Of a stretch of DNA of 64,000 nt, positions 4,301-56,428 are shown one piece after another (position 1 is the stretch's first letter; the number at the start of each line of letters is the position of its first letter). Under the pieces are notes generated by a model. It was not told the origin of the DNA, made no database searches, and worked only from the letters and a program-made list of their open reading frames with translations. The position numbers and the translations under genes were made by a program. Source of the stretch: Pristiophorus japonicus (taxonomy: Eukaryota); NCBI RefSeq assembly GCF_044704955.1, contig NW_027251843.1, forward strand, positions 186,001-250,000. Reading direction: 5' to 3'.

Positions 4301-4751
4301 ACAAGTCAATAAGTGGCAGCTTGTCAAACGCCTTTCGAAAGTTCTGATACACATCAACCGTGATATTTCTGGATATATCTAGATTCCTTCCAAAGTGTAT
4401 CACCTTGCATTCATTATATTAAAGTTCACATTACTGCACAGTCTGCATGTTTCCTAACGTCTATTGTGAGATGTCGTTCAGTGAAATAGTTCTTCAATAT
4501 TTGAAGCAAAGCATCAGTTTATTGAGTAAAATACCAATAATAATTAATAAATAAAGGCAGCCATCTACAACTGTGTGAGGTTTTGGAACTTTACCAGAAA
4601 GTCAGAGGGTTTATTGCTGAGTAAACTATTGGCTTGTCACTTTGTACTGCTGCTATTCGGTAAAGCTGGTGAAGATATTATTTATTTCAACTAACACAAC
4701 CGCTGCCCACTTTACATGAGCCTCACTTTGTTCTTTCCATATATAAATATG

Positions 4752-6080
4752 CACCCAATACCCTCAGACCCTCCACACCCCACCCAATACCCTCAGACCC
4801 CCCACACCCCACTCAATACCCTCAGACCCTCCACACCCCACCCAATACCCTCAGACCTTCTCCTCCCCACCCAATACCCTCAGACCCTCCACACCCCACT
4901 CAATATCCTCAGACCCTCCACACCCCACTCAATACCCTCAGACCCTCCACACCCCACCCAATACCCTCAGACCCTTCCCTTCCCACCCAATACCCTCACA
5001 CCCTTCCCTTCCCACTCAATACCCTCAGACCCTCCACACCCCACTCAATACCCTCAGACCCTCCACACCCCACTCAATACCCTCAGACCCTCCACACCCC
5101 ACCCAATACCCTCAGATCCTCCACACCCCACCCAATACCCTCAGACCCTCCACACCCCACCCAATACCCTCAGACCCTTCCCTTCCCACCCAATACCCTC
5201 AGACCCTCCACACCCCACCCAATACCCTCAGACCCTCCACACCCCACTCAATACTCTCAGACCCTTCACACCCCACTCAATACCCTCAGACCCTCCACAC
5301 CCCACTCAATACCCTCAGACCCTCCACACCCCACTCAATATCCTCAGACCCTCCACACCCCACTCAATACCCTCAGACCCTCCACACCCCACTCAATACC
5401 CTCAGACCCTCCACACCCCACTCAATACCCTCAGACCCTCCACACCCCACTCAATACCCTCAGACCTTCTCCACCCCACTCAATACCCTCAGACCTTCTC
5501 CACCCACCCAATACCCTCAGACCTTCTCCACCCCACCCAATACCCTCAGACCCTCCACACCCCACCCAATACCCTCAGACCTTCTCCACCCCACCCAATA
5601 CCCTCAGACCCTCCACACCCCACTCAATACCCTCACACCCTTCCCTTCCCACCCAATACCCTCAGACCCTTCCCTTCCCACTCAATACCCTCAGACCATC
5701 CACACCCCACTCAATACCCTCAGACCTTCTCCACCCCACCCAATACCCTCAGACCCTTCCCTTCCCACCCAATAACCTCAGACCTCCTCACCATACCCAA
5801 TATCCTCAGACCCCCCCACCCAATACCCTCAGACCTTCCCCACCAATACCTTCAGACCCCCTCAGTCCACCCAATATCCTCAGACCTCCCCCACCCCACC
5901 CAATACCCTCAGACCCCTCCCACCCACCCAATACCCTCAGATGCTCCCCACCCCACCCAATATCCTCAGACCCCTCCCACCCACCCAAAACCCTCAGACC
6001 CTCCACCCCACCCAATACCCTCAGACCCACCCCCACCCAATACCCTCAGACGCTCCATCCCACAGAATATCCTCAGGCCT
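4752..6080. repeat. 29-bp C-rich minisatellite
   Basis: CCCAATACCCTCAGACCCTCCACACCCCA unit, about 45 copies, degenerating at the 3' end. Confidence 0.95.
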
Positions 6081-19150: not shown

Positions 19151-19994
19151 GATTCGTCTGAGCTTTCGACCACACATCCGCAGCATAACTAAGACTGCCT
19201 CTTTCCATCTCTGTAACATCACCCGTCTCCACCCCTGCCTCAGCTCATACGCTTTTGAAGCCCTCATCCATGCCTATTAACTGTAGACGCGACTATTCCA
19301 ATGCACTCCTGGCTGGCCTTTCACATTCTACCCTGCGTAAACGAGAGGTGATTCAAAACTCGACTGTCCGTATCCTAACTCGCACCGAGTCCCGCTCACC
19401 CATCACTCCTGTGCTCGCTAACCTACATCGGCTCCCAATTAAGCAAAGTATTGGCGGGAGGAAAGGTGATGGGTTTTGGGGATATAAGGAGCTGCTTTGC
19501 AACAAGCTCCAGCTCAGGAGGAAGAAAGCTCCGGAAACAGCTCCGCAAAAAGCTCAGCAAAAAGCCCAGGAAAAAGCCCAGGAAAAAGCCCAGGAGCAAG
19601 ACATTCAGGAAGAAGCTGCAAGCAAGACAACGGGCAATCAGGGTGAGCATATTGCCTGCGCCTACACATCCACAAGACCACTTAGCTGTGTGAGGGGGTG
19701 ATTGTAAGTCCCAACCAAACCCAAGGGGTTTAGTGCTGGGGGGGTCCTGTGTTAGTTTATTTCACGGGAGGGTTCTTTTATTCAGCCGTGGTAACTTAGC
19801 ATGACAGGGCTTATTGGACAAGCCAGGGTTGTACTGTTTTGCACTGTTTATGAGTGGTATTGTTAATCTTATTAAACACAATACAGTTGAGCCTGAAAAA
19901 CGTGTGTCCGAGTCTGACCTGTCCAGAAAATTCCTATCGTCCAGAACTTGTAGTAGGAGGTGTGTTTTCAGTATGCCCGAGAAAACCACCTACA

Positions 19995-20715
19995 GGCACC
20001 CCCTCCAACAGTGCAGCACTCCCTCAGTACTGCCCCTCCGATAGTGCGGCACTCCCTCAATACTACTGCTCCGGCAATGTGGCACCCCCTCAGTACTGAA
20101 CCTGTGACAGTGTGGCACTCCCTCAGTACTGCCCCTCTGACAGTGCGGCACTCCCTCAGTGCTGCACCTCCGACAGTGCGGCACTCCCTTAGTACTACAC
20201 CTGCGACAGTGCAGCTCTCCCACAGTACTGCCCCTCTGATAGTGCAGCACTCCCCCTCTGACAGTGCAGCACTCCCTCAGTACTGCCCCTCTGACAGTGC
20301 GGCACTCCCTCAGTACTGCACCTCCGACAGTGCGGCACTCCCTTAGTACTACACCTACGACAGTGCAGCACTCCCTCAGCACGGCCCCTCTGACAGTGCG
20401 GCACTCCCTCAGTACTGAACCTGTGACAGTGTGGCACTCCCTCAGTACTGCCCCTCTGACAGTGTGGCACTCCCTCAGTACTGCCCCTCTGACAGTGCAG
20501 CACTCCCTCAGTACTGACCCTCCGACAGTGCAGCATATCCTCAATACAGCTCCTCTGACACGGCAGCACTCCCTCAGTAATGCCCCTCCGACAGTCTGGC
20601 ACTCCCTCAGTACTGCCCCTCTGACAGTCTGGCACTCCCTCAGTACTGCGCTCTGACAGTGCAGCACTCCCTCAGTACTGTCCCTCTGACAGTGCGGCAT
20701 TCCCTCAGGACTGCA
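19995..20715. repeat. About 33-bp SINE-derived minisatellite
   Basis: CCCTCTGACAGTGCGGCACTCCCTCAGTACTGC unit; the same motif occurs once in the SINE at about 27180-27220. Confidence 0.92.
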
Positions 20716-22879
20716 CAGTAGTGTATATCTTTAATTTGCACTCAGGTCCCGGGAGTGGGGCTTGAACCCACGATACAACATTGCATCACTGCATGCCGTT
20801 CAGTCTGAGCTGTGAGTCATATCCCGACCTCAGTTGGAACAGCTAACTCAGAACAAACAACAACAGCAACTTTTATACAGCACCTTTAACACAGTAAAAC
20901 TCCCCGAGTGCTTCACAGGAGCGTTATAGAATAAAGATTGACAGCGAGCCACCTAAGGAGACATTGAAATTTGCAGCTCAGTCAAATTGTGAGGGAAATT
21001 GGCAGTGCTGTCTTCATACCAAAAGGGGGCGATGTTGGTTCTGAAAAGACCAAATTTTTGGACAATTTCTGTGTCACTCAATTGATTGGTTTGTAAAACC
21101 CGTTTGTACCAAACCTCCAGTCAGGTTTGCAGAATAATTTCCAGTTCCCCACGTGTCATTTGATGGTGGATCTCAGCGTGTATCTCCTCGTCCGCTCGTG
21201 AGGCGGTGTCTCAGAGCGATTGGAGGGTCAGCAGCCACTCCGCACTGCAGTGAGCATCGGCAGGCCATTCCACTGTGGGAGGCCTCTCCGCGGAGCTCGG
21301 TGCACGGGGTATATCCACACAGAGACGCTCTGCCGCCAGGTACAGCAGCAACAACCTGCATTGCTATAGCAACTGGAACATTAGAACAACATCCCGAAGC
21401 AGCTGATAGAGGCGTAATCTGGTCAAAGTGTTGCTGAGCCAAAGGGGGAGGAGCTGGGAGGGTGATCAAAACACTCAGTCACAGATTGGGTTTGAAGGGA
21501 GGTCTTAAAAGAGGAGAGGGGTGGAGTGGCAGAGAGGTTTAGGGAGCAGGGAGTTAGGGCCCAGGCAGCTGAAGGCACAGCCCCCAATGGAGGGGAAAGG
21601 GAAGGGGGGATGGATAAGAAGCCTGAGCCAGATACAGCGGCCCCTGAACACAACAACAACTTGCATTTATATAGCGAGTGTTGTGACAATGACAGACAGT
21701 GAGAATATAACCCTGATCATGTAACACAGTATTTGCAGCACTTGACACTGTGGGGAAAGCTTGTAATTTTAATCCATGAGCTGTACATAAGCGAGAGCAG
21801 GACCTGTTTGTGGCCGGTGCGGAGATCACCACTTACAGAAGGTAGTTACTGCAGGGAATTCAGGGCCACAGTGACCTCCTGGACTAGTTTCCATCGCCTG
21901 GGGAGCGGGGGTGGGGGCGGGGGGTGGCAGGGTCGGAGAGGAGTTTCCCAGATTTATTTCCCCCAATGGGTTTTTTAGCTGGTTTTCCACCTCTCCCAGG
22001 AGATCAGGTAGTTTTGGGTGGGGTGGAGAGTCTATACTGTGATACACCAGGTATCACAATTGTGTGGGACGGGCTGGATGGACCACAGGGTCTTTACCTG
22101 TCCGTCACTGTTCGCGGGTTTGGGTTTCAAAAATGTAGAGCTGAATTGGAAAGAAAGACTTGCATTTATATAGCGCCTTTCACCACCTCAGGTCATCCCA
22201 AAACGCTTTACAGCCAATGAAGTACTTTTGAAGTGTAGTCACTGCGGTGATGGAGGAAACACGACAGACAGTTTGTGAACAGCAAGCTCCCACATGTGAC
22301 TATGACCAGATAATGGGCCTAAATTGCGTATCGCCCCGAGTGGGGCGGTAACTTTTCCCATGCCCAAGTCCCGCGGAAGCGAAATTGGGGTCACGGCCCC
22401 TGACAGGAAGTGGAGCGCATTGTGGCGCGCTGCACTTCCCCTGGGGATGGGCTCGAGGGCGAGTGTCGGGCTGCACCATCGCGGCACCGACCCCGCCACA
22501 TCGGCACAGAAAGGCCCGACCGGTAAGTTGGCAAAAACAAATGGCAGAGCGCACCTCGCAGTAAGGTTCACCCCACGAGTGAAGTGCTGACCGGTTCGTG
22601 GCCCACAGGCCTGGCGTGGACACAGCTCACAATCTGTTTCCTGGTTCTTGGGTAGGACTTGAACCCACAACTTTCAGACTCAGAGGCGAATGTGCTGCCC
22701 ATTGAGCCACAGCTGACTGAGCTGCAAACTTAAGGCACATTAATGGCCCATCGACGGTGTTCGCCCTCAGTGGGGTGAACAAATCCAGAAATTATGGCCT
22801 GAATGATGTCGGCCGGGCCATTATTTGCTTTTTTATCGTTTTAAGTTTATTTCTGCTGTGTTAGTCCTTAGTCTATTAA

Positions 22880-27315: not shown

Positions 27316-28582
27316 CTAATACTCAAAATCATATTGGATTGTTGTATAAACATCTGCAGTGCAGGGTTGGCACATATTCAGCACTGAAATGGTTAACAGT
27401 AAGAGTCGGTAAAGACTGAGTGTCCCGTTAAGATGCTGTTCACTGGTAGGAAGCTCGAACTGTAGATGGGTGGATACAGGGGAAACAGGCTCAGCAGTGA
27501 GAAAGCTCAGATCACACACAGATCGGTGCAGAAGCTTCTAGATTGCGTTTAAAAGCTTGCTGCCCAGCACCGGGGTGAGGTCAAGGGTGAGGCTACAATT
27601 AGCCTCAGTGTACCGGGGTCAGGCAGGGTCACTGATCCCAATGATCCCGTGACCTTCTGGAAAGTCAGAATGCGCGGACATTAGGCGAGGGTCAGGATCA
27701 GGGTCCCACTTCAATGAATTTATATAGCGCCTTTCACAACCTCAAGACTTCCCAAGGTCCTTTACAACCAATTGCACACAGGAAGATTTAAGAGGTTGTT
27801 GCCTGGACTGGAGAATTTTAGCGATGAGGAAAGATTGGATAGGCTGGGGTTGTTTTCCGTGGAACAGAGGATGCTGAAGGGAGACCTTATTGAGGTGTAT
27901 AAAATTATGAGGGGCTTAGATAGAGTGGATAGGAAGATCTATTTCCCTTAGCAGAGGGGTCAACAACCAGGGCATAGATATAAAGTAATTGGTGGAAGGT
28001 TTAGAGGGGATTTGAGGGGAAATATCTTCAGCCAGAGGGTGGTGGGGGTCTGGAACTCACTGCCTGAAAGGGTGGTAGAGGCAAAAACCCTCACCATATT
28101 TAAAAAGTACTTGGATGTGCACTTAAAGTGCGGTAACCTACAGGGCGACAGACCAAGAGCTGGAAAGTGGGATTAGGCTGGGTAGCTCTTTGTCGGCCGG
28201 CGCAGACACGATGGACCGAATGGAGTCAGCCAGTGGCTCAGTTCGTCGTGCCCTCGCCTCTGAGTCAGAATTTGCGGGTTCAAATCTCACTCCGATGTCC
28301 TGGCCAATATTTATTCCTCAATCAACACAACAAAAACAAGTTATTTGGTCATCATCACATTGCAGTTTGTGGGAGCTTGCTGTGCACAACTTGGCTGCTG
28401 CATTTCCTACATTACAACAGTGAGTACACTTCAAAAAGTACTTCATTGGCTGTAAAGCATTTTGGGATGTCTGGTGGTCATGAAAGGCGCTATATAAATG
28501 CAAGTCTTTCTTCCTTTTCTCAGAGCCGAGCGTGCTAGTGACTGAGCAACGGCTGACAACTCACGGTCGATTAGCCTGACAC

Positions 28583-28990
28583 GCTCAGTCTCTGGGCTCA
28601 CACTGGGACAGTGAGCTCACTTGGGGAGCTCAGTCTCTGGGCTCACACTGGGACAATGAGCCCACTTGGTGAGCTCAGTCTCTGGGCTCACACTGGGACA
28701 ATGAGCCCACTTGGGGAGCTCAGTCTCTGGGCTCACACTGGGACAGTGAGCCCACTTGGGGAGCTCAGTCTCTGGGCTCACACTGGGACAGTGAGCCCAC
28801 TTGGGGAGCTCAGTTTCTGGGCTCACACTGGGACAGTAAGCCCACTTGGGGAGCTCAGTCTCTGGGCTCACACTGGGACAGTGAGCCCACTTGGGGAGCT
28901 CAGTCTCTGGGCTCACACTGGGACAGTGAGCCCACTTGGGGAGCTCAGTCTCTGGGCTCACACTGGGACAGTGAGCACACTTGGGGAGGG
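28583..28990. repeat. 45-bp minisatellite (about 9 copies) in the J-C intron
   Basis: GCTCAGTCTCTGGGCTCACACTGGGACAGTGAGCCCACTTGGGGA unit. Confidence 0.95.
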
Positions 28991-31118
28991 GAACTGTGCC
29001 CCAGCCAGAGGTAGTTCCTTCAGGAGTGAGATGGGGAGCAGATGACGGGCAGCCTGTGGTGTAGAGGGGAGACATTTCACCGGCCGAGGGCAGGTGCTGA
29101 GCCCGTTTACCTGTAAGAATGTGATAAGTGGATGGGGAAAGTGGGCCGGGCACTGAGTTAACGTCCTGTGTTGCTGGTGGAACTCTTGCTGTCTGCTCCG
29201 TCACGTGTGACAAACACGCAGACACATCAGACGGACATCTGGGATGGAGGGATTGTCCTATGGAGAGATTGAGTAGACTAGGCCTATATTCTCCAGTGTT
29301 TAGAAGAATGAGAGGGGATCTCATTGAAACATACCAAATTGTGACAAGGCTTGACAGGGAAGATGCAGGGAGGATGTTTCCTCTGGCTGGGGAGTCTAGA
29401 ACCAGGGGTCACAGTCTCAGAATAAGGGGTCGGCCATTCAGGACTGAGATGAGGAGAAACCTCTTCACTCAGAGGGTGGTGAATCTCTGGAATTCTCTAC
29501 CCCAGAGGGCTGTGGAGGTTCAGTCCTTGAGTATATTCCGGAGATCGATAGATTTTTGGATATTAAAGGAATCGAGGGATATGGGGACAGTGCAGGAAAG
29601 TGGAGTTGAGGTGGAAGATCAGCCATGATCTCATTGAATGGCGGAGCAGGCTCGAGGGGCCAAATGGCCTCCTCCTGCTCCTAATTGCCATATTCTTATG
29701 GAACATTAGTTCGTGTTCTGGGGATTTTCTGGTGGGTCCAGGTTTAATCAGCAGGGGAATTGTGCGAGTCCCAGTTAATAAAAAGGAAAGAGAAATTAAA
29801 GAAAGACCTGCATTTATATAGCACCTTTCACACCTCAGGATGTCCCAAAGTGCTTCACAGCCAATGAAGTACATTTTTGAAGTGCGGTCATTGTTGTAAT
29901 GTGGGAAACACGACAACCAATTTGTGCACAGCAAGCTCCCACACACAACAATGAGGTAAATGAGCATTTCAAGCGATGTAGGTTGCGGGATAAATATCGG
30001 CCTGAACTCGAGCCACAGAAACAGCAACTGAGAGTCTCCCCACAACCCTGGAGCACTGCAGCCGCCGGATTGCGAGCCCTGCTGCCCCTGTTTGTGATCA
30101 GAAGTTGGACAGGAGGTGAGCGGGGGCTGGACAGATCAGAGTTGGAGCTGGGGGAGGCGGGACCTCGGGAGTGTCAGTGTGCTGAGGCTGAGCTCAGTTA
30201 TATCAGAGACTGTGACAGGAGCACAGACTGCCCCCAGCGAGCTCACTCACTCACACCCACACTCTGCCCGTGTCTCACACACCGTGTCTGTCACACTGAG
30301 ACAGGCAGGAGGCTCGGGAGTGATTTCCGGGGATGGTGCAAGGATGGGACCGCAGTGTGTCAACGTCCAGATCTCCTCCACACGGTGGGTAACAGTTCGT
30401 TACTTATACTTTGCTGGGTGAAGGCGGAGTGTGTGTAAAGGAATACAGCCGGGCTCCCTGTCATACACAGCACTCTTCAATTGACGCTTTCATTCACCGC
30501 AGCTCCCCACCATATTATATAACCCATACAGAGGCACAGGAGAGGGTGCAGAGAAGGTTTCCAAGGATGGGACCAGAAATGCGAGGGTGTACATATCAGG
30601 AAAGGATGAACAGGCTGGGGCTCTTTTCTCTTGAGGCCGAGGAGTGACCAGATAGAGGTCTTTAACATTAGGAAAGATTTTGATAGAATGGATACAGAGA
30701 GAGTGTTTCCACTTATGGGGAAGAGCAGAACTAGAGGCCATCAATATAAGATAGTCAGCAAGAAATCCAATCGGGAATTCAGGAGAAAATTCTTTACCCA
30801 GCAATTGGTGAGAATGTGGAACTGGCTACCACAGGGAGTGATTGAAGTGAATAGTATCGATGTATTTAAGGGGAGGCTAGACAGGGATATGAGGGAGAAG
30901 GGAATCGAGGGTTATGCTGATAGATTTAGATGAGGAAAGACGGGAGGATCGAGTGGAGCATAAACACTGGCATGAACTGGTTGGGCCGAATGGTCTGTTT
31001 CTGGGCCATGTATCCGATGTAATCCTGTGTAAACTAAAATCTTCCACTATTCAGCATTTGTGTCTTCGAAAGATTCAGTATTTAAAGTGTTAATAACGGA
31101 GCATTGGGGTTTACTTAC

Positions 31119-43105: not shown

Positions 43106-43566
43106 TGTGGAAGAAAGAATCTATGAATCCATGGCTTATGGTAAAGGGAAGGGTTAAATTCTGTTTTTGCTATATTTGAAGAAATAATAGGACTAGAACA
43201 ACACCCACACTTTTTAGCCTTAAAACTTAGAAATGTAATTAAATGACTATCCGGTATTAAAAGGGAGTCTCCTGATATTCTGCTTATCAGACTGTGAACA
43301 GGGAGAAACTATGCAAGGACAGATAGAGTGTGTGCCTCCCGAGACGACCTTTGTACTCACGGAACTAATGAATAAGATTCCTTTTCTATTTCTGTATTCT
43401 ATTTCTGTATAAAGATAGGGACATTTTGCTTGTACAGGAGAGTTTTCTGCCTTGGTACGGTCCAAGCAGGCTCTCCGAGATATTTTGCTTTTTTAAATAA
43501 AATTCTCTCGAAGCACGATTCTGAAAGCCTCCGCCTGAGTTAATTAACTGAGAAATTTCCTCGACA
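43106..43566 (+). repeat. ERV 5' LTR (461 bp)
   Basis: TGTGG...CGACA; TATAAA and AATAAA inside; direct repeat of 52051-52511. Confidence 0.96.
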
Positions 43567-43571
43567 GATTC

Positions 43572-43590
43572 TGGCGTAGTCCGGCAGGAT
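43572..43590 (+). promoter_or_regulatory. Primer-binding site, tRNA-Ser
   Basis: TGGCGTAGTCCGGCAGGAT versus the complement of the tRNA-Ser 3' end TGGCGTAGTCGGCAGGAT (one extra C). Confidence 0.8.
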
Positions 43591-43910: not shown

Positions 43911-45557
43911 ATGGGAAACGGCTCTAGTCGAGCAGGGCGCTCGCACCCAGCTCCTAGAAAAGGAAAGAAAGACGACCTCTCAACTGAAAGAATGAAAGTA
44001 CATCCTAAGACTGAGAAAAGAATCCGTAAGGTAGCAAAGCAACGAGAGAAGGTAGGAGATCCTATTGTGCCGCCCGGCTCGCCGGCAGACACTGTAATTA
44101 AAGAAACAGGAGACGACAGATACGCGGTAACGTTTAGTAGCGATTTGTACGGTTGGTCTGATGGGGATTGGCCATATGGAGGAAGTTTTAAATTGACCTT
44201 AATTGAGGAATGGAGACAGACCACCAAAGATGGGGCGGGGGTCCCCACTTGGGATAAAGATTATATGGAGAATTGTTTTAAAAAATGGACAGAGGTGGCA
44301 AAAAGGCACCAGCCCCCTAAAAATAAAAAGAAAGAGGAGGAGGGTAAGGAGAAGCCCCCTCCCTCTTACAGCCCCCCCGAGAGCCCCAGTTATGACCGCT
44401 TCCCCTGTCGGCTTATATCCCCGTCTTCCAACCACCAAGCCGGATGATTGGCAGGAGATCATAGAAATAGTGGCTGCCCAGCTAGATCAGGCCTCTAGGC
44501 GACGAATGCAACCACGACCCCAGAACCCACCAGAGGATGAAAACGGGGAAGGAGGGGCAAGTGGAGGAGCCGAAGGCGAAAACCCCAACCCTGACCCTGG
44601 AATGAATACCAGGAATACCATAAGACAGGCCGATTCCACCACTACCCCCACGACACAAGCCCCCCGTGTAATGATTGGAACCACGGCTGTCCTAAAGCCC
44701 TGGAAGCTCGGGATATGATATCAGCCACCCCTAATCCTGTTAAGAAGCCAGTAGCCTTTCATAACTGGCTTGAGCAAACCTGTACCATTTATAACCCCCT
44801 CCCCGGAGATGTGAAATTATTACTGCAGGCAGCATATGGGTCCTCTTGGCAGGGGGTAAAAGATATGTTCCCTATACCCACCGGCGAAAACGGAGATTGG
44901 CGGGAAGATAATGAGGAAGAAGGAAATGAGTCCCGGGAACATTGGTTGCAGCACAGGGGCAAGGATGCCATACTAAAGGGAGCTAAAAAGCATGGAGATA
45001 TAGGGGAAGTCACGCGCTGTCTGCAGAAAGCAGAAGAATCAATAATAGATTTTGCAGGCAGATGGAAAAATAGTTGAGACGAGCATGCAGCAATACCAAT
45101 GGATCAAAATGAACCTTTGGCAGTGCAAACCTTGTTAAATTGTATGTTGCCGCAACACACGAGAACCTATAAAATTAAGGTTTTGGACTGGCAAGGAAAA
45201 AGTTGGAAGGAAACAATTACAGTCTTGGCCAACATGGATAGGGAGGGACTATTCACCTATAAGGAAAATAAGGCTAAAACAGCAGGTCAGTACCATCAGC
45301 AAAAGGGAAGAGAACAAGCACAGAATAATAGAGGAGGGTTTGGGGGACGAGGACGAGGAAGAGGGAGAGGACAGTGGCCCCAACGAGACCGCTCCCAAGA
45401 TGAGTGTAGAAATTGTGGAAGGAAAGGGCATTGGGCTCGCGATTGCAGATGCCCCCCGAAACAGGGTGGAGGGTTACAAGGGGATTTCCCCAAACCTCCA
45501 CCTTCATTGGCCCCTCAGTTTTCGTTCTCTAACCCCAACCCGCACCAATCAGCATAG
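43911..45557 (+). pseudogene. gag: ERV gag (two frameshifts, one stop)
   Basis: MGNGSS myristoylation start, WPYGGSF matrix motif, PPSY and YPRL late-domain motifs, CRNCGRKGHWARDC zinc knuckle, TAG in frame with pol. Confidence 0.9.
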
Positions 45558-48500
45558 GGATGCCCCGGAGGCTTAGTGGTACAGGCGGCAGCCCTCCACT
45601 TATCAGCAGACATCGAAGAAAACCCTTTGGCAGTAGTAAAAGTAGGAGACACTTATGTGAAATTCCTGGTGGATACCGGTGCTACTATGTCTTCTGTACC
45701 ATCCTCTGTGGGATTACCTGTAAGCAACACCACCGTCTTAAGTATGGGTGTGGCCGGTAGCCCCATGAAAGAATTTTTATCTGAACCTACCAAATTGATA
45801 ATTGAAGGACAACCAGTTAATGATGAGACTTTGATAGTCTCTAAAACAACACCTCTCCCTTTATTGGGAAGACAGACTTTGTGCAAACTAGGAGCCACAA
45901 TTTATTGCACAAAGGAAGGAATGTACATGGAGCTCCCTCCAAATAAAATTCATCAGTTGTTTAATGGGATTAAAGAAGAGAAAAGGGAGGATAACAAAGA
46001 AAAGGCTGCCTTCTATTGTTGGCAATTGAATGGCAACTTCTACTCTCCTTTGATACATGAAGTTATACAAAATTTAAAAGCTAAAATCGACCCTAATACT
46101 GAAGAATTGATGTATATAATTTTGACAAGCATTCAGGCAGTTCAGCTTCATTGTACAGCCTGGTACACTCGACAAAAAGCTGAAACTTACCAGTGTTTGG
46201 TACAATCCTTTTTAAAAAAAGAAGAAATAGTAGAAGCTACGCCCCACATTTATTTTGGACCAGAAGGATTGGGGGTAGCCATGGATTTGACACCCTTACA
46301 GCAGCAGCGGTATAGAGAAGCGAACTCGACACCCCATCTGACATTGGCTACAAAACCGCCAGCGAAAACAAAAGATATGGGTCCGATGATTGTAGGAATA
46401 GAAAAAGAAAAACAGCAACAAGGCTATCAACCTTGGGCAGTAATAAAACTGCAAAATGTTCAGATAGACTTTATCACCCACAACAGGGGGATTCTCCAGT
46501 GGAAAGGTAAAAATCACGCCTCCACTTTTGAAAAACAGCAACCCCCGGAACAACCAAGCCCTAAGCTGCCAATGGCATTGAATCAAGTATCTTCTGAACT
46601 TTGGGCAAAGCATAAGAATCATGTTGGGCAAGTACATTCTGCAGTACCCCATCGGGTACAATTGATAAAGAACACCGTGTTACCAAGCATTAGACAGTAC
46701 AGACTGCCTCCAGAGGCAGAAAATGGGATAGAGCCAGTCATTTCTGCATTGTTGGAACAAGGAGTTTTAAAAAAGACACAGAGCCCGTGTAACACTCCGA
46801 TACTGCCCATACCAAAGGTTAATAGGCCGAATGAATGGAGATTTGTGCAAGATCTGAGAGCTATTAATAAGATAGTAGTCCCTATCACCCCTGTGGTACC
46901 GGACACCAACATTATACTATCTGCTATACCACCAACAGCAACTGTCTTTACTGTGATAGACCTGTGTTCAGCTTTTTTCTCCATCCCTTAAATCAAGAAA
47001 GTCAGTATCTGTTTGCTTTCACCCACAAAAGCAGCAGTACACATGGACCAGATTGCCCCAAGGATACACCGAAAGCCCCGCAGTATATGCAGCAGCAGTA
47101 AAAAGAGACCTTGATGACTGTTCATTATCAGACCAGTCTGTGCTGTTGCAGTATGCGGACGATTTGCTTGTGGCTTCTAGCCACGGATACAGGTGCGTAC
47201 AAGACTCCCTAAAACTGTTACAGCACCTATGTGAAAGAGGGCACCGAGTGTCGTTACCAAAGTTACAATTTTGTCAGACTCAAGTCCAGTACCTGGGTTT
47301 TCACATATCTCAAGGGCAGAGGCAGCTAGGACCAGAAAGAATTCAGACAATTCAAAGTGCCCCCATACCAAAGACAAAGAAGGATATCTTGTCATTTTTG
47401 GGGATGGTTGGGTACTGTAGACAATGGATCCCCGATTATCGAGAATGGGATGCGGTCCTAAGATCAGCTGCCCTAAATGATGCCCCACCCAAGGTGGAGT
47501 GGACCCCAGAGAGAGAGGAGGCATTTAAACAGTTAAAGAAAGCCATTACTAATGCTCTGGCGTTGGGACTTCCGAATTATGGTAAACCTTTTCAGATGTA
47601 TGTGAATGAGAAAGAAGGATTTGCAACCGCAGTACTAACCCACGAACATGGTGGGGGAAATAGACCAGTTGCTTATTATTCGGTTTTGCTGCCTCCAGTA
47701 GTAAGGGGAATGCCAGCATGTCTACGTGCTGTAGCTGCTACTGCAGTCATGGTGGAGAAGTCGGTACCTATTGTTTTGGATTATCTATGTGCTGTCATTA
47801 CAGCCCATGCTGTGTTATTACTTTTGAATTCAGCTGCCACACAACACTTTACAGCGTCTAGAAGAACAGGTTATGAAGTATTACTGCTGTCACACCCTAA
47901 CTATACCTTTCGACGCGCACCGGTAGTAAACCCAGCCACCTTTCTTCCTACTAAAGAATAGAGGATCCAGACCAGCATGATTGTCTGTTAACAGTGGAAA
48001 TAGCCACCTTACCAAGACCAGATTTGCTCACAGAGCCCATGGACAATCCTGATCTTATTCTCTATACGGATGGATCATCACATAGGCCGTCGGATGACTT
48101 GCTGTTGGCAGGCTATGCTATTGTAAATCCCCACGAAACTGTTGAAGCATTCGCCCTGCCTCCCGGAACCTCGGCTCAGGCTGCTGAATTGTTTGCCCTC
48201 ACTAGAGCTTGTATAATAGCTAAAGATCATACTGCTAATATCTATACTGATTCCAGATATGCATTTGGTGTGGTCCATGATTTTGGACAACTGTGGAAAA
48301 ACAGAAGCTTTATCACCTCTGGTGGAAAGCATATTAAGCACTCTCAACTGGTGCTTAATCTATTAGATGCCATTCAGTTGCCAAGTAAGGTAGCCGTCAT
48401 CAAATGTGCAGCTCACACAACCGGTGAGGATGAAGTATCAGTAGGAAATAGGAGGGCTGACGAGGCAGCCAAACAGGCCACTTCGGCACAGGCAGACTGC

Positions 48501-49712
48501 CTTCAAGCAGTCTCAGTCTCCCCTCCACAAGTACTTGACATCCAACAACTTAAAACAGCCCAACAACAAGTTACCATGCAGGAAGGAAGAACTTGGGAAA
48601 ACCAGGGTTGTTTTCTCAAAAACGACATCTGGTGTCACCCTGATGGGCGAACTGTTTGCCCTAAATCTCTATTTTTGCCCCTGTCTCGCCTAGCACACGG
48701 TCAGGCTCAAATGGGCAAAGGAGGGATGATACATGCTATTAATGCACAGTGGTATGCACCAGGAATAACAGTAGTAATTGAGAAAGTTGTGAGAACATGC
48801 CAAATTTGTCAAAAAAATAACAGAGGTAAAACACCTGCTGAATATGATCATCTACCCCAGCCAAGTATGCCCTTTGAAAATTTGCAAATTGATTTTATTC
48901 ACACGCCTCCAGTATCAGGTCTTAAGTACCTATTAGTCATAATAGACATGTTCACAAGGTGGGTAGAAGCGTACGCCACGAGGAGAGACGATGTCCGAAT
49001 AGTAGTAAAAATTCTATTTAAAGAAATAGTACCAAGATATGGGATACCTATGGGAATCAACAGTGACAGGGGAACACACTTCACCGGAAAAATAGTGCAA
49101 AACCTTGCAGAAGCGTTAGGTTTCCAGTGGAAGTTACATATACCATATCAGCCACAGTCCTCGGGAATGGTAGAAAGAGTAAATGGGATAATAAAATCTA
49201 CCCTTACCAAGGTATGCCAGGAGACTGGACTAAAGTGGCCAGATGCCTTACCATTGGTATTGTATACAATGAGAAACCAGAAAAACCGAAACACTGGTTT
49301 GACACCACATGAAGCCTTATTGGGAAGACCAATGCCTACTGGCGTAAAACCACCACTGGCAGCTGAAAAAATAGCATTAATTTGGAATGATGAAAAATCA
49401 CTAAAGTATGCTCAGGCCATGTGTGAAATAGCAAGGAGTCTGCATGAACAGATAAAGCAGACACAGGTGCCCCCGTCGGAAGGAAATATGCACCCTTTCA
49501 GGCCTGGAGACCAACTGCTGGTAAAAACATTAAACAAAGAATCCTTTTCTCCTCGGTGGAAAGGACCATATCAGATAATTCTCACAACACGAACCGCGCT
49601 GAAGTTGGAAAAGCATCCAAATTGGGTGCATGCAACCCATTGTAAATTATTTTCCCGACGAAATACAGCCAAAAGAAAAGGCATCGAACCAGGACGTACT
49701 ACGATTGCCTGA
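45558..49712 (+). pseudogene. pol: ERV pol: protease - 2H phosphoesterase - RT - RNase H - integrase (frameshifted near 46990-47040 and 47960)
   Basis: LVDTGA protease; VQDLRAIN, LPQG, YADD RT; TDGSS/AAEL/YTDSRY RNase H; IDF..SDRG..MVER integrase; WKGPY. Confidence 0.95.
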
Positions 49713-49810: not shown

Positions 49811-49966
49811 ATGTCAGAGCTCATTTGTGTGCCAGTTTGGGCCTTTATTATTTGGGCCACTGTTACTATCGTGTGGACGTGTTGTTATTGTAACGACTTA
49901 ATTCAAGAGTGGTATAGAAACAAACAAGAAAGGGAAGATGGGAAGGGACTCTTGGAAAAATTATAA
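49811..49966 (+). CDS. Putative retroviral accessory ORF, 51-aa single-pass membrane protein overlapping the env start
   Basis: MSELICVPVWAFIIWATVTIVWTCCYCNDLIQEWYRNKQEREDGKGLLEKL*, translated by hand; below the ORF-track cutoff. Confidence 0.55.
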   Translation: MSELICVPVWAFIIWATVTIVWTCCYCNDLIQEWYRNKQEREDGKGLLEKL

Positions 49967-52124
49967 ATGGACGTTAGGTATACTGATCATTTTAGCGACA
50001 GGGAACTCCCGGCAGGAGGAAGAAGTTCTAAAAGAAGGAAGAGTATGGAAGGGAAATATGGTATGGGAAAGAAGTAATAGTGCAAGGCAACAAGGCAATT
50101 TTATATGCACAGTAGGCCAAAGTTGTAAAGTAGGGAACTTTACGACACGATGTGAGGCGTGTGGAATGAAAGAAGAAAGAGGGGAATTCCAGTTTATATT
50201 GGGGAAAGGGTATCAGTTGTTCATAGAATACCAGGCCGATGTGTGGATGAAGTGTACCCACAGCACGGGGAAAAACAAGAGATGGGGGTACATAGGAGGG
50301 CCGGACGAGAGAAAAGACTTCCTCCTTTATTCATTTACAAGTATGGTAGAAGGGCAGCGGATGTTGTGCATGAATAACACCCCGGTGAATGGAGGAGACC
50401 CATTCGTGGTAAAATGGTCAGTAAAAGAATCTGGCCACCCAGAAGACCGGGACCCGGGACATCTAAAAAGGATACTGACCACTTGCATCCCAGTGGTAAG
50501 ATCCCCAGGTGTATTAAATCTAACAATACGAATTAAATATCCCCCAAAGAAAGAAGATGGTTGCCACACAACCAGTGTTAAGGTATCTTTTGAAAAAGAA
50601 AGACCCCAAAGAAAGAAACGGGATGTATTAGAGACTGTGTTAGGTGGAGTGGGAGCAGGAATAGGAGCATTGAACTCCATGGATATTGAGACCCTACAAA
50701 ATAAAATCCAGGCCGTCGGAGGACTGGTAGGGGAAGATATAAAAATCAGAAATGCCTGGGATGAAGGATTACAGCAATTACAGATATCAGGTTACGTCCT
50801 AAATGAAATGACCTGGCAACAGAATGAAAGGGTAGAGAAGGAAATAGAGAACCTAATAAAGGAACAACAGGGAGTAACAAGTACACCCATTGCCTGTTTA
50901 AAGAAATGATCAGACAGCTATTAAGAGCCGAGTTAGAAAGGAAAATATTATCCTTCCATGCTAACACATGGGAAAGGTTGCTGGAAATTAACAAAAGGGA
51001 TAAGCTTCTTAATTTAACCATTAACCCTCAAAAAAAAGATATACCAGTTGTAATTCAAAAGGATGTAAAGTTACTGTGGAGATAGTAAGTAAGACACGAA
51101 AATAAATTTGGTGTCAGTTCCAAGTAATGCCCCAACTGTTTGGACAGAACTTCTGGTACCCAGAATTTAAAGGAGATTGGGTCGATGAGAAGAATATGAC
51201 ACATCACCAGATGCTAGGTGGCCATTCGGAATGGTATGTCCCTATCAGACCGCCATATACGAACCATGCTCACTGCAGCACTCCATTGGAGTATGTAAAT
51301 GGGAATTAAAGCCAACAAATGACACTGATATTACGGAAATAGGACAGAATGAGGTCTGTGTGACAGGAAATAAACCTGTCTCTCTGGATGGAATTTTGTA
51401 TAAACCCCCCATTAATAAATGCGTGAGAAGAGTCTACTCCCTGTATGACCCTGAAGTAAAAACAACTTATACCTTTGGGCAATGGCAAAATGTAGAAAAA
51501 TATCTGTCTATGCACAAGATTGAACCCTTACCCCCCGTAATTAATCTGACCAGACTGCACAATTTGATACGGAATGACAAGAAAATTGAGGAAGCTCTGT
51601 CAAAGCAAGGCAGAAACATCCACCAATTTAGAGTCGAAATGAGTTACAAGAAGGGGCAACTAGTAAGAATTGTAGACGAAGTCACCTCTTTGACAGTACA
51701 CCACTGGTGGGATGTGTTTACCGGATGGTCCCCAAAAGCTACAGCAGTACTGAAGCTTGCTATACACCCCATAGTAATCGTAGGTGTGGTTATGCTTGTA
51801 TTATTAATAATCCTTTGCGGAATGTGGATAAAATAAAAAAATGTAATTAGTCAAGTAATAGGCCTGATCTCCGAAATAGAAAGGAAAAGTGTGTGCATGA
51901 AAGGAAGGTTAAGTTGCTTAGAGGAAAAGGTTGATGAAGACGAATATCTCAAAATGCGACCCTATCCTGAAGGGTATGAACCCCCTTTTGCGCAAGAAGA
52001 GAATATAGGAAATTGTGTTGATCTGAAAAAAAAATCAACAAGAAGGGAATTGTGGAAGAAAGAATCTATGAATCCATGGCTTATGGTAAAGGGAAGGGTT
52101 GAATTCTGTTTTTGCTATATTTGA
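49938..52124 (+). pseudogene. env: ERV env (disrupted around 50900-51230, stop at 51834-51836, in-frame tail to 52124)
   Basis: Signal peptide, RKKR furin site followed by a Gly-rich fusion peptide (DVLETVLGGVGAGIGALN), heptad region, membrane anchor IVIVGVVMLVLLIILCGMW. Confidence 0.88.
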
Positions 52125-52511
52125 AGAAATAATAGGACTAGAACAACACCCACACTTTTTAGCCTTAAAACTTAGAAATGTAATTAAATGACTATCCGGT
52201 ATTAACAGGGAGTCTCCTGATACTCTGCTTATCAGACTGTGAACAGGGAGAAACTATGCAAGGACAGATAGAGTGTGTGCCTCCCGAGACGACCTTTGTA
52301 CTCACGGAACTAATGAATAAGATTCCTTTTCTATTTCTGTATTCTATTTCTGTATAAAGATAGGGACAATTTGCTTGTACAGGAGAGTTTTCTGCCTTGG
52401 TATGGTCCAAGCAGGCTCTCCGAGATATTTCGCTTTTTAAAATAAAATTCTCTCGAAGCACGATTCTGAAAGCCTCCGCCTGAGTTAATTAACTTAGAAA
52501 TTTCCTCGACA
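52051..52511 (+). repeat. ERV 3' LTR (461 bp)
   Basis: About 8 substitutions versus the 5' LTR by manual comparison; preceded by AAGAAGGGAAT. Confidence 0.96.
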
Positions 52512-52967
52512 CTGCCACTGTCCCGTTTATTTTTTTTATTTGTTCCTGCGATGTGGGCATCACCGGAAAGGCCAGCATTTATTGCCCATCCCTAATTGCC
52601 CTTGAGAAGAACCGCTGTTCCTTTTTTTAATAGCAGTTTGGTACAACTGAGTGGGGTAAGATTTTGTACAAGTTTGCTGTAACTTGACCAGATTTTATGT
52701 ACCAGCATGCCTCGCGAGGCCAACAGGACTTTCTGCTGCACAAATGTCCATTAAAGCTGCTGAACGCTGCAAGCTGTCCTGTGGTTGAGCTACTTCGAAA
52801 GCTGTGTTTCACAGGTAAGGGAAATAGTGGCCTTCAGACCGTGAGAACTTTGCGAGAACAGACTCAGAAACAGGAACATCAGCACACAAGAAGTCTCCAG
52901 TTTTGCATTCGACTGATTAACTGTCTAGCTGGTTGATCAGGAGAGGAGAAGAACATCTACGGCCATT

Positions 52968-54028
52968 CCTCCCATCGAATGAGACATGGACACACTGAGG
53001 GACTGCCCATTACTCCCATCGAATGGGACACGGACACACTGAGGGACTGCCCATTACTCCCATCGAATGGGACATGGACACACTGAGGGACTGCCCATTA
53101 CTCCCATCGAATGGGACACGGACACACTGAGGGACTGCCCATTACTCCCATCGAATGGGACACGGACACACTGAGGGACTGCCCATTACTCCCATCGAAT
53201 GGGACACGGACACACTGAGGGACTGCCCATTACTCCCATCAAATGGAACATGGACACACTGAGGGACTGCCCATTACTCCCATTGAGTGGGACAAGAACA
53301 CACTGAGGGACTGCACATTACTCCCATCGAATGGGACATGGACACACTGAGGGACTGCCCATTACTCCCAGCGAATGGGACACGGACACACTGAGGGACT
53401 GCCCATTACGCCCATCGAATAGGACACGGACACACTGAGGGACTGCCCATTACTCCCAGCGAATGGGACACGGACACACTGAGGGACTGCCCATTACTCC
53501 CAGCGAATGGGACATGGACACACTGAGGGACTGCCCATTACTCCCATTGAATGGGACATGGACACACTAAGGGACTGCCCATTACTCCCATTGAATGAGA
53601 CACAGCCACACTGAGGGACTGCCCATTACTCCCATTGAATGGGACATGGACACACTAAGGGACTGCCCATTACTCCCATTGAATGAGACACAGCCACACT
53701 GAGGGACTGCCCATTACTCCCATTGAATGGGACATGGACACACTAAGGGACTGCCCATTACTCCCATTGAATGAGACACAGCCACACTGAGGAACTGCCC
53801 ATTACTCCCATCGAATGGGACATGGACACACTGAGGGACTGCCCATTACTGCCATCGAATGGGACACGGACACACTGAGAGACTGCCCATTACTCCCATC
53901 GAATGGGACATGGACACACTGAGGGACTGCCCATTACTCCCATCGAATGGGACACGGACACACTGAGTGACTGCCCATTACTCCCATCGAATGCGACACA
54001 GACACACTGAGGGACTGCCCATTACTCC
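52968..54028. repeat. 44-bp minisatellite (about 24 copies)
   Basis: CTCCCATCGAATGGGACACGGACACACTGAGGGACTGCCCATTA unit with no variable spacers. Confidence 0.95.
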
Positions 54029-56428
54029 TAGTTTTGTAGTGTAAAAAGAGCTTCAAAATTAGTATTAGAGGCTTGTTTATAACCCGGGATTACTGAGTGT
54101 AACAGTACTATTAGAGACTTACTTGTAACCTCTTGGTGATTTTAAGTAAAGAGAACTTATTCCAGAAATTTTTGTCTTGAGCTGTCTGTTCCACAGGTCC
54201 GAACTCTATAAACTGTTGGACGGTGTGAGGGGTAAATCCACACATCTTACAGTGACTCACTGGGCCATTAAGTGTTAACCACATGATCACCATTATTAAC
54301 ACAAGCTTTTTTATTCCAGATTTATTTAATTGAACATATATTTCCCAGCTGCTGTGATGGGATTTGAACTCATGTCTGTAGGATTATTGTTTTACTTTTC
54401 TGAATTATTAGCCCAGTAACATTACCACTATGCTTCCATTCCCCATTCCATGGGCTTCAACTTTGCTGGCAGGCCTATTATATGGCACTTTATCAAACGC
54501 CTTTTGGAATACGTCAACTGCATTGTCCTCATCAACCCTCTCTGTTACCTCATCAAAAAACTCAATCAATTTAGTTGAACACAATTTGCCTTTAATAAAT
54601 CCGTGTTGGCTTTCCTTCATTAATCCTCCTCAGATAATGAAGCAATCTGTGCCCGCATGCAGCAAGACCTGGAAGACATTCAGGCTTGGGTTAATAAGTG
54701 GCAAGTAACATTCATGCCACACAAGTGTCAGGCAATGACCATTCTCCCAACAAGAGAGAATCTAACCACTGCCCCTTGACATTCAACGGCATTACCATCA
54801 CCAAACCTCCCACCATCAACATCCTGGGGGTCACCATTGACCAGAAACTTAACTGGACCAGCCACATAAATACTGTGGCTACAAGAGCAGGTCAGAGGCT
54901 GGGTATTCTGTGGCGAGTGTCTCACCTCCTGACTCCCCAAAGCCTTTCCACCATCTACAAGGCACAAGTCAGGAGTTTGATGGAACCTCTCCACTTGCCT
55001 GGATGAGGGCAGCTCCAACAATTCTCAAGAAGCTCGACACCATCCAGGACAAAGGAGCCCGCTTGATCCACCACCTTCAACACTCACTCCCTCCACCACC
55101 GGCGCACCGTGGCTGCAGTGTGTACTATGTACAAGATGCACTGCAGTAACTCACCAAGGCTTCTTCGGCAGCACCTCCCAAACCCACGACCTCTACCACT
55201 TAGAAGGACAAGGGCAGCAGGTGCATGGGAACACCATCACCTGTAAGTTCTCCTCCAAGTCACACACCATCCTGACTTGGAAAAATATAGTCCGTTCCTT
55301 CATCATCACAGGGGCAAAACCCTGGAACTCCCTCTATAACAGCACTGTGGGAATAAGAGAACACGGGGTTGGTGCTAATATATTAGCATGGATAGAGGAT
55401 TGGCTAACTAACAGAAAACGGGGAGTCAGCAAACGGTAACTAGTGGGGTTTCACAGGGATCGGTGTTGGGGCCTCAACTATTTACAATTTATGGTAATAA
55501 CTTGGATGAAGGGACCGAGTGTAAAAAATCAAAGAGCAAATTATTATTTAAATGAAGAGAGATTACAAAATGCTGTAGTACAGCAGGACCTGGGGTTCCT
55601 TGCGCATGAAACACAAAAAGTTAGTATGCAGGTACAGCAAATACTCAGGAAGGCAAATGGAATGTTGGCCTTAATTGCAAGGGGGATAGAGTATAAAAGC
55701 AGGGAAGTTCTGCTACATCTGTACAAGGTATTGGTGAGACCACACCGAGAGAACTGTGTACAGTTTTGGTCTCCTTATTATAAGGAGAGATTTATTTGCA
55801 CTGGAGGCAGTTCAGATAAGGTTCACGAGGTTGATTCCTGCCTGAGATGAAGGGGCTGACTTATGAATAAAGGTTGAGCAGGTTAATCAGAACATAAGAA
55901 ATAGGAACAGGAGTAGGCCATACGGCCCCTCCACCATTCAATAAGGTCATGGCTGATCTGATCATGGACTCAGCTCCACTTCCACGCCCACTCCACGTAT
56001 ACTCTTTGGAGTTTAGAAGAATGAGAGATGAACTTGTTGAAACATATAAGATTCTGAGGGGGCTCGACAAGGCAGATGCAGAGAGGATGTTTCCAGTCAT
56101 AGGAGAATGAAGAACTAGGGGGCAGAGTTAAGGAATAAGGGGTCGCCCATTTAGAATTGAGATGAGGAGGAATTTCTTCTCTCAGAGGGTTGTAAATCTG
56201 TGGAATTCTCTGCCCAAGAGAGCTGTGGAGACTGGGTCATTGAATGTATTTAAGGTGGAGATAGACAGATTTTTGAACGATAAGGCAGTAAAGGGTTATG
56301 GGCAGCGGGTAGGGAAATGGAGCTGAGCCCAGGATCAGATCAGCCATGATCTTATTGAATGGCGGAGCAGGCTCGAGGGGCCAAATGGCCTAGTCCTGCT
56401 CCTATTTCTTTTGTTCTTATGATTCTTT

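Follow-up and report, generated by a model that had tools for sequence, protein, structure and literature searches.

A predicted CNPase-like 2H phosphoesterase domain between protease and reverse transcriptase in an endogenous retrovirus of Pristiophorus japonicus, conserved in fish retroviruses and under purifying selection

Domains of the 2H phosphoesterase type, among them 2',3'-cyclic-nucleotide phosphodiesterase (CNPase), are already known as a kind in fish retroviruses. Indeed, 2H domains have been reported in walleye dermal sarcoma virus (WDSV) and fish retroviruses (PMC9503650, citing Mazumder 2002), and some epsilon-like endogenous retroviruses (ERVs) of ray-finned fish encode CNPase (PMC4977317, citing Basta 2009). 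In the literature searched, from which most subscription journals were absent, no retroviral 2H domain was found to have been tested for function. Han 2015 on shark ERVs (PMC4422223) contains no mention of CNP, phospho-, domain or accessory, and retroviruses are unmentioned in PMC11410667 and bioRxiv 10.64898/2026.07.21.739742. Here, a CNPase-like 2H domain is described that is located between the protease and the reverse transcriptase (RT) in the Pol polyprotein of an ERV of the shark Pristiophorus japonicus. The provirus lies in a stretch of 64,000 nucleotides (RefSeq assembly GCF_044704955.1, contig NW_027251843.1, positions 186,001 to 250,000 of the forward strand), referred to as the window; coordinates are counted from its first letter, and all features given are on the forward strand.

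An initial annotation, made from the letters of the window, had placed an in-frame 2H insert with two intact catalytic histidines between protease and RT, and this description was confirmed. The stop-to-stop frame 45558-46991 encodes 477 amino acids and comprises the retroviral aspartyl protease (45615..45902; Pfam RVP, E 1.5e-9, amino acids 20-115; catalytic DTG at 45672, GRQTL at 45867), the insert, and the start of the RT (ELWAK at 46596). From the protease end to the RT start, 231 amino acids are found, of which the predicted 2H fold (45990..46517, model residues 1-176; AlphaFold 2 model, Foldseek and VIA comparisons) fills approximately 176. The two H-phi-[ST]-phi motifs that define the 2H superfamily are both present, namely H-C-T-A (46149..46160, within LHCTAW), which aligns with CNPase H230/T232 and is followed by a Tyr at the F235-equivalent position, and H-L-T-L (46335..46346, within PHLTLA), which aligns with CNPase H309/T311. 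Both His codons (46149 and 46335) are CAT, and they are 62 amino acids apart, as annotated. When the 229-amino-acid insert was shuffled, a pair of phi-H-phi-[ST]-phi motifs 50-100 amino acids apart arose in 14 of 100,000 shuffles, and a plain HxT/S pair at the same distance in 4,076 of 100,000. Because a plain pair arises this often by chance, the bare motif pair is weak evidence, a lead rather than proof, and it is conservation and fold that carry the case.

Conservation became apparent with profile searches. A word-index protein search with the single domain retrieved only one protein, 92% identical and labelled sawshark, which is the nearest database protein and agrees with a shark host. 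A full phmmer scan returned 15 proteins: this relative, a further 13 that share the motif region at 30-40% identity and include several pieces of fish-ERV Pols, and one unrelated repeat protein. The latter (P0007) does not contain the motifs and was excluded from the alignments A1 and A2. A profile of ten sequences (the window domain and nine phmmer relatives) retrieved 107 longer proteins and 106 proteins of similar length, the labels of which cover approximately 50 genera of ray-finned fish (counted by eye, partial matches included) as well as the cartilaginous genera Pristiophorus, Narcine, Chiloscyllium, and Leucoraja. Both H-x-S/T motifs were intact in 161 of the 188 homologues spanning both motif columns, a set that is redundant, not dereplicated and rich in cichlids; the first His was kept in 183, the Thr in 185, and the second His in 179. 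The homologues are approximately 20-30% identical, with His and Thr as their best-conserved residues, and the expectation that the HxT motifs would be conserved in sister proviruses was borne out. Some fish-ERV-like proteins (P0161, P0166, P0178, P0202, P0212, and P0060) bear the label of a bacterium (Cetobacterium, Aeromonas, Brevinema, Shewanella, Salmonella) or of the ferret, which probably reflects host contamination or mislabelling, and many tilapia entries bear unrelated host-gene names.

The position of the domain is conserved too. Of the 220 proteins in which 2H was matched, 188 have a protease, which is upstream in all of them, and the RT is downstream in 127 of 134, the other seven displaying overlapping 2H and RT matches, in which the domain is apparently truncated. 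The gap between protease and RT has a median of 228 amino acids (n = 108), compared with 231 in the window, and the distance from the second His to the first Trp of the RT is 85-93 amino acids in 32 of the 34 proteins measured (40 tried). At least three ERV families in the shark genome carry the domain: besides the family of the window, at least two further ones, with an RT that is approximately 45-50% identical, possess their own 2H domain between protease and RT (29 open reading frames with 2H in the 30 loci fetched, L033-L062). In one of these families, Arg replaces the hydrophobic fourth position of motif 2, and the link between the second His and the RT is shorter (71 amino acids). The domain is old and widespread in fish epsilon-like retroviruses and not a shark novelty.

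The family to which the window copy belongs is large (1,258 candidates), the 150 scored being 90-100% identical over the domain, and some copies keep open frames of more than 1,200 codons through it. For the analysis of selection (omega, dN/dS), 109 copies were picked by RT match and not by domain (110 of the 150 loci listed, one duplicate omitted), and 107 were counted after two near-duplicates had been dropped. Variants of the 2H domain found in a single copy gave an omega of 1.09 (48 synonymous, 144 non-synonymous), as expected from decay after insertion. Omega was 0.83 for variants in two to four copies and 0.40 for variants in at least five copies (41 synonymous versus 45 non-synonymous, p 2.4e-5), the latter class giving 0.27 for the protease and 0.14 for the RT N-terminus. 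An earlier count on 23 copies, a small sample, gave 0.52 for shared variants, in the same direction. The dN/dS comparison across ERV copies that had been proposed in the initial annotation hence reveals purifying selection on the domain while the family replicated. In addition, the first His was kept in all 105 and the second in all 104 copies covering it, as in the window copy. The domain was covered for at least 90% in 93 of the 109 copies, and 46 of 91 had no stop or net frameshift within it.

No clean junction of protease and RT without the domain was seen among the 109 copies, two of which align poorly there. Two deletions, one of 549 nucleotides (window-equivalent 46442-46990; L151, L175, L195, and L199) and the other of 437 nucleotides (window-equivalent 46396-46832; L109, L171, and L200), recur at loci that are not linked, affect seven of the 109 copies in total, and eliminate the last part of the 2H domain along with the RT start. 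Since they destroy the RT as well, they mark non-autonomous copies, probably subfamilies copied in trans, and not a dispensable domain. Descent of the domain parallels that of pol: for 43 dereplicated proteins, the 2H tree and the tree of protease plus RT were correlated with a Mantel rho of 0.81 (best of 999 permutations, 0.37), the former being 1.55 times longer. This fits one old acquisition that would have been inherited with pol, plus noise or some recombination. Within the same genome, the ERV pol region is repeated in tandem, in more than 20 copies spaced approximately 5.35 kb apart, at 232.76-232.92 Mb of contig C3 (assembly G000). Two loci on contig C8 (L002 and L003; 148.29 and 148.55 Mb) carry a domain that is 99% identical to that of the window in the same 477-codon frame; possibly, they represent a duplicated same insertion or an alternate haplotype.

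The fold was modelled with AlphaFold 2 from an alignment of 93 sequences, with a predicted local distance difference test score (pLDDT) of 74.7 and a predicted template-modelling score of 0.73; a single-sequence model with a pLDDT of 32 was set aside. With this model, the best Foldseek match had an E value of 4.8e-7 and a template-modelling score of 0.65, and the matches listed to rank 50 were all CNPase or RICH. Comparison by VIA with 48,161 representative chains gave a Z score of 15.2 for CNPase (173 residues aligned, root-mean-square deviation 3.8), and a second comparison 15.8 for human CNPase, the CNPase range being 15.0-15.8 over approximately 170 residues. The second fold class was 6u05 (Z 11.6), titled fungal RNA kinase (residues 640-832), which we take to be the tRNA ligase Trl1. 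Lower scores were obtained for zebrafish cyclic phosphodiesterase (CPDase; 8.4), phage Acb1 (8.0), mouse hepatitis virus (MHV) NS2 (7.7), Usb1 (7.3), AKAP18 (7.0), rotavirus VP3 (5.8-6.2), and the cyclic GMP-AMP (cGAMP) phosphodiesterase of avipox (5.8). The first 21 VIA rows (Z at least 5) were all of the 2H type, as judged largely by their titles, in agreement with a two-lobed 2H fold for the model. CNPase is hence the nearest 2H structure, and the AKAP7/NS2 group, with Z scores of 5.8-7.7, reaches half of its score; of the three comparisons proposed in the initial annotation (CNPase, AKAP7, and NS2), the first was the one that stood out.

Profile searches independently point in the same direction. 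A profile of ten ERV proteins had 24 matches in the PDB at E up to 10, of which 23 were CNPase or RICH (best E 0.0025) and the remaining one was the avipox cGAMP phosphodiesterase (E 0.81). The ERV profile also aligns weakly to an exon of the host CNP gene (hhalign probability 53%, E 1.4e-4). A single-sequence search of the PDB gave one chance match, and with the A2 profile, the PDB matches were swamped by RT and protease. In the model, a strand (residues 116-121, with His116) is followed by a loop and by a predicted helix at the place of CNPase helix alpha7 (46368..46421; DSSP H127-144), so that a CNPase-type alpha7 helix is predicted to be present. Helix alpha7, which has been suggested to limit substrate size, and the beta5-alpha7 loop have been described as unique to CNPase (PMC4643303). 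Counted by offset from the His residues, this helix of the window copy has Lys where CNPase has V321 and, like CNPase, Gly where it has G324. Among the homologues, the F235-equivalent (first His + 5) is Tyr or Phe in 169 of 174 and the G324-equivalent (second His + 15) is Gly in 157 of 174; an aromatic residue also occurs near the position of CNPase Y168, in a register that is unsure. The domain is therefore predicted to be CNPase-like by fold, with a remodelled pocket.

A second location of the domain is suggested by predicted viral structures. The best matches in BFVD were the Env polyproteins of walleye epidermal hyperplasia virus 1 (WEHV1; E 2.9e-9, 171 columns) and WDSV (E 8.4e-9, 179 columns), the entries for these walleye Env matches being Q9WHI8 and A4GTG3, followed by the 1,072-amino-acid fragment Q2VF30_1. 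The initial annotation had proposed a phylogeny with inserts of the walleye viruses; the best structural match of WDSV and WEHV1 is in Env and not in an insert between protease and RT. WDSV Env has a cytoplasmic loop of approximately 170 residues between helices that end at amino acid 874 and start at amino acid 1045 (PMC3185748). This loop (amino acids 875-1044) is probably the matching domain, the structure search giving no matched range within Env. In that case, the domain has been transferred from one polyprotein to another, and in either of them it would come to lie inside the particle, facing the cytosol; such a move between Pol and Env is considered probable on the basis of the predicted structures. 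A scan of viral contigs for relatives found none.

Concerning function, we tentatively favour, at somewhat short of an even chance, that the insert is a CNPase-fold 2H domain that acts as a 2',3'-cyclic-phosphate hydrolase carried in virions, with a role against the host. The protein would be synthesised by readthrough of the gag TAG and packaged into virions with Gag-Pro-Pol, as may reasonably be expected from its position in Pol. The viral protease would then cut in the linker between protease and 2H domain (45903..45989), in which homologues contain a run of Gln and two hydrophobic residues that may represent a viral protease site, and perhaps also in the linker between 2H domain and RT; omega in the former linker was near 1 among the genomic copies, on few variants. 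The His/Thr pairs would open 2',3'-cyclic phosphates to 2'-phosphates by general acid-base catalysis, as CNPase and the Trl1 CPDase do, and an enzyme of this kind would likely serve to eliminate nucleotides and RNA ends with cyclic phosphates by which the host is alerted. It may have originated long ago by capture from a CNP-like gene of a cell. Three points favour an anti-host role: the domain is accessory, its evolution is faster than that of the RT, and it seemingly tolerated a move to Env. Candidate substrates would be 2',3'-cGMP, described as the natural ligand of TLR7 pocket 1 (PMC11470960), and fragments with cyclic-phosphate ends of the RNase T2 type, which are sensed by TLR8 (PMC8406329); the link to TLR7/8 ligands is speculative. 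Among the substrate options of the initial annotation, the processing of 2',3'-cyclic phosphate ends fits best.

Several observations weigh against this assignment. The fold does not fix the substrate, as 2H enzymes switched substrates repeatedly (PMC11410667), and the TLR7/8 ligands arise in the lysosome, a compartment in which a protein of the virion may not survive. The identity between domain and CNPase is only 13-17%; the window protein did not match Pfam CNPase (PF05881), and one of 93 homologues did so, with a score (E 0.011) that falls short of the cut-off. The model is of moderate quality, with residues 150-155 and 181-188 below a pLDDT of 50, and the pocket positions were assigned by counting from the His residues rather than by superposition. 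At these positions, the R307-equivalent is not Arg (most commonly Ala, Val, Tyr, Glu, Thr, or Phe), and the V321-equivalent is Lys or Arg in 150 of 174 homologues; such residues, unlike those of CNPase, could mean a different, more charged substrate, for instance a dinucleotide. Finally, the omega count was not tree-based, used a fixed transition/transversion weight of 4 and left out CpG transitions, and of 15 well-supported splits of the protease plus RT tree, eight recur in the 2H tree and five conflict with it.

A broader scenario is rather doubtful: fish retroviruses would have captured CNPase a single time, long ago, and made of it an enzyme that travels with the virion and erases innate-immune nucleotides, carried either in Pol (ERVs of shark and teleosts) or in the Env cytoplasmic loop (WDSV and WEHV), with a Lys/Arg pocket and with 2',3'-cGMP, cyclic-phosphate RNA (TLR7/8 ligands) or packaged cGAMP as targets. 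If true, retroviruses would thereby counter nucleotide sensing with an enzyme, in a manner for which no description was found in the literature searched.

The main rival of 2',3'-cyclic-phosphate hydrolysis, which we nevertheless regard as unlikely, is a repurposed phosphodiesterase for cGAMP or other cyclic dinucleotides, clearing cGAMP from the producer cell and the virion. HIV-1 and other virions package cGAMP, which triggers STING in target cells (PMC10242147), so that a packaged enzyme cleaving it would be useful, and the 2H enzymes of phage (Acb1) and avipox do cleave cGAMP (PMC11410667). The conserved Lys or Arg that corresponds to V321 could provide a contact for a second phosphate, and the avipox enzyme was the sole non-CNPase match of the ERV profile. 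Structurally, however, both enzymes are far from the domain, with Z scores roughly half that of CNPase or less, and the predicted counterpart of helix alpha7, which in CNPase has been suggested to restrict how large a substrate can be, argues against a dinucleotide. The cGAMP-cleaving 2H enzymes are polyphyletic, so that no sequence mark defines the group (PMC11410667).

CNPase-type chemistry could instead serve replication, healing 2',3'-cyclic-phosphate ends of the tRNA primer or of nicked genomic RNA in the core and thereby aiding the RT. The nearly fixed distance at which the domain directly precedes the RT speaks for this, as do its nearest folds, CNPase and the Trl1 CPDase, which act on RNA ends. 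An Atlas feature search had the tRNA-ligase CPD family as its best family, with weak leads (one below the recognition threshold, the other with a score of 0.75). CNPase rescues tRNA splicing in yeast (PMC4643303), and RNA-end processing has been suggested for some viral 2H domains (PMC9503650). Nonetheless, the best walleye matches are in Env, away from the RT, and the domain is less constrained than the RT. Further, the 2'-phosphate left by CNPase is a poor primer end, and to our knowledge, most retroviruses replicate without such a domain. A job in replication is hence also improbable.

Much less likely still is a 2',5'-phosphodiesterase that destroys 2',5'-oligoadenylates (2-5A) and blocks OAS-RNase L, as do MHV NS2 and rotavirus VP3. 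The domain has the superfamily and the motif pair in common with these enzymes. Pfam AKAP7_NLS was matched weakly (E 0.13), below the cut-off, and this match was lost with slightly different bounds. The host genome contains OAS matches (16, of which 15 on one contig), with at least five OAS-like genes (L203-L208) clustered at 218.42-218.60 Mb of contig C8, some matches having internal stops. A Pfam search for host RNase L gave three matches at two loci, which we presume to be IRE1. The OAS-RNase L pathway works in a cartilaginous fish, whereas the ancestral ray-finned fish had lost OAS as well as RNase L (PMC10400998); it is from ray-finned fish that most named homologues come, with both motifs kept. 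Antagonism of 2-5A, proposed in the initial annotation, is thus weak as an explanation for the domain in general, since the catalytic residues are retained in teleost ERVs although the lineage of their hosts lost OAS and RNase L; the Z scores of NS2, AKAP18, and VP3 weaken it further. In the one family of the window, whose shark host keeps an OAS cluster, it may still apply. Least probable of all is a non-catalytic or neutral insert (a spacer, a decoy for antiviral host CNP, which appears in a table of PMC7471995 as a binder of HIV-1 Gag MA that inhibits the formation of particles, or an unselected, once-captured passenger): the deletions in seven copies and an omega above those of protease and RT could be read in its favour, but these deletions hit the RT too and hence mark non-autonomous copies, omega is significantly below 1, and His and Thr are the residues best conserved among highly diverged homologues.

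The provirus that carries the domain is full-length, with recognisable long terminal repeats (LTRs), target-site duplication and primer-binding site and the order LTR-gag-pro-pol-env. The 5' LTR (43106..43566, 461 bp, TG...CA ends) directly follows a CTGCC target-site duplication and the 3' LTR (52051..52511) directly precedes one; 8 of the 461 bases are different between the two. A primer-binding site immediately behind the 5' LTR (43572..43590) was recognised by its sequence, presumably for tRNA-Ser, which it resembles. The gag gene (43911..45557) has an MG start and a CCHC zinc knuckle at its end, is broken into three frames with an internal stop, and closes with a TAG (45555-45557) in frame with pol, which may be of the readthrough type. 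With its broken gag, the window copy cannot produce the protein in the usual way. The region of RT, RNase H, and integrase (46590..49712) changes frame near 46990 and is interrupted by a stop at 47959-47961, and an env-like region (49902..51836), assigned by position and open frames, is broken into several frames; two pieces of it tested with Pfam gave no match above the cut-off. The provirus is young but dead as a virus. It is labelled epsilon-like on the basis of an MLV-type integrase C-terminal domain (Pfam), its teleost homologues, and PMC4977317, rather than a tree with reference epsilonretroviruses. Elsewhere, the window contains tandem arrays at 4636-5775 (29-bp unit), 19933-20735 (33 bp), 28493-29032 (45 bp), and 52831-54142 (44 bp), the last one starting approximately 300 bp past the 3' LTR, and many decayed LINE-like repeats; no tRNA genes were found in its 64 kb.

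As a whole, the domain is an old, selected part of pol across viruses of bony and cartilaginous fish, and its grouping with CNPase rather than with the 2-5A enzymes narrows the question of its substrate. The answer would bear on how retroviruses handle nucleotide-based sensing and on which cyclic-phosphate substrate matters in vertebrate cells, that of CNPase itself included. Compared with the CNPase or 2H domains reported before, virus type and domain are the same, with approximately 200 homologues after the protease in fish ERV Pols; the differences are the shark host and the presence in at least three families. In WDSV and WEHV1, the structural match is in the Env polyprotein and not between protease and RT. 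What is added here is that walleye Env rather than Pol provides the closest viral structures, which suggests relocation, and that, as aligned, Lys or Arg stands in place of CNPase Val321. Vertebrate CNPase and fish RICH (1woj, 2xmi, 2i3e; PF05881) share with the viral domain the predicted fold of approximately 170 residues, two H-x-T/S motifs, an aromatic residue at the first His + 5, Gly at the second His + 15, and a helix after the motif-2 strand. However, the His residues are approximately 79 positions apart in mouse CNPase (H230-H309) versus 62-63 in the viral domains, which are embedded in a polyprotein and flanked by protease and RT. Full-length CNPase has an N-terminal polynucleotide kinase-like domain and a C-terminal prenylation site, both of which are missing from the viral domain. 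The host CNP gene itself is a separate, intron-containing locus (L031/L032; contig C21, 4.66 Mb) with its LHCTT and SHITL motifs on separate exons. The fungal Trl1 CPDase (6u05; PF08302), the second-best fold class, likewise opens RNA 2',3'-cyclic phosphates, but the virus has no kinase or ligase partner for it, and there is no match at sequence level. Lastly, the viral immune antagonists MHV NS2, the C-terminal domain of rotavirus VP3, and Middle East respiratory syndrome virus NS4b (2-5A), as well as Acb1 and the avipox phosphodiesterase (cGAMP), are virus-encoded 2H enzymes with two catalytic His residues as well, although structurally much farther away (Z 5.8-8.0); the 2-5A-cleaving enzymes among them generate cyclic phosphates (PMC8406329), whereas CNPase consumes them.

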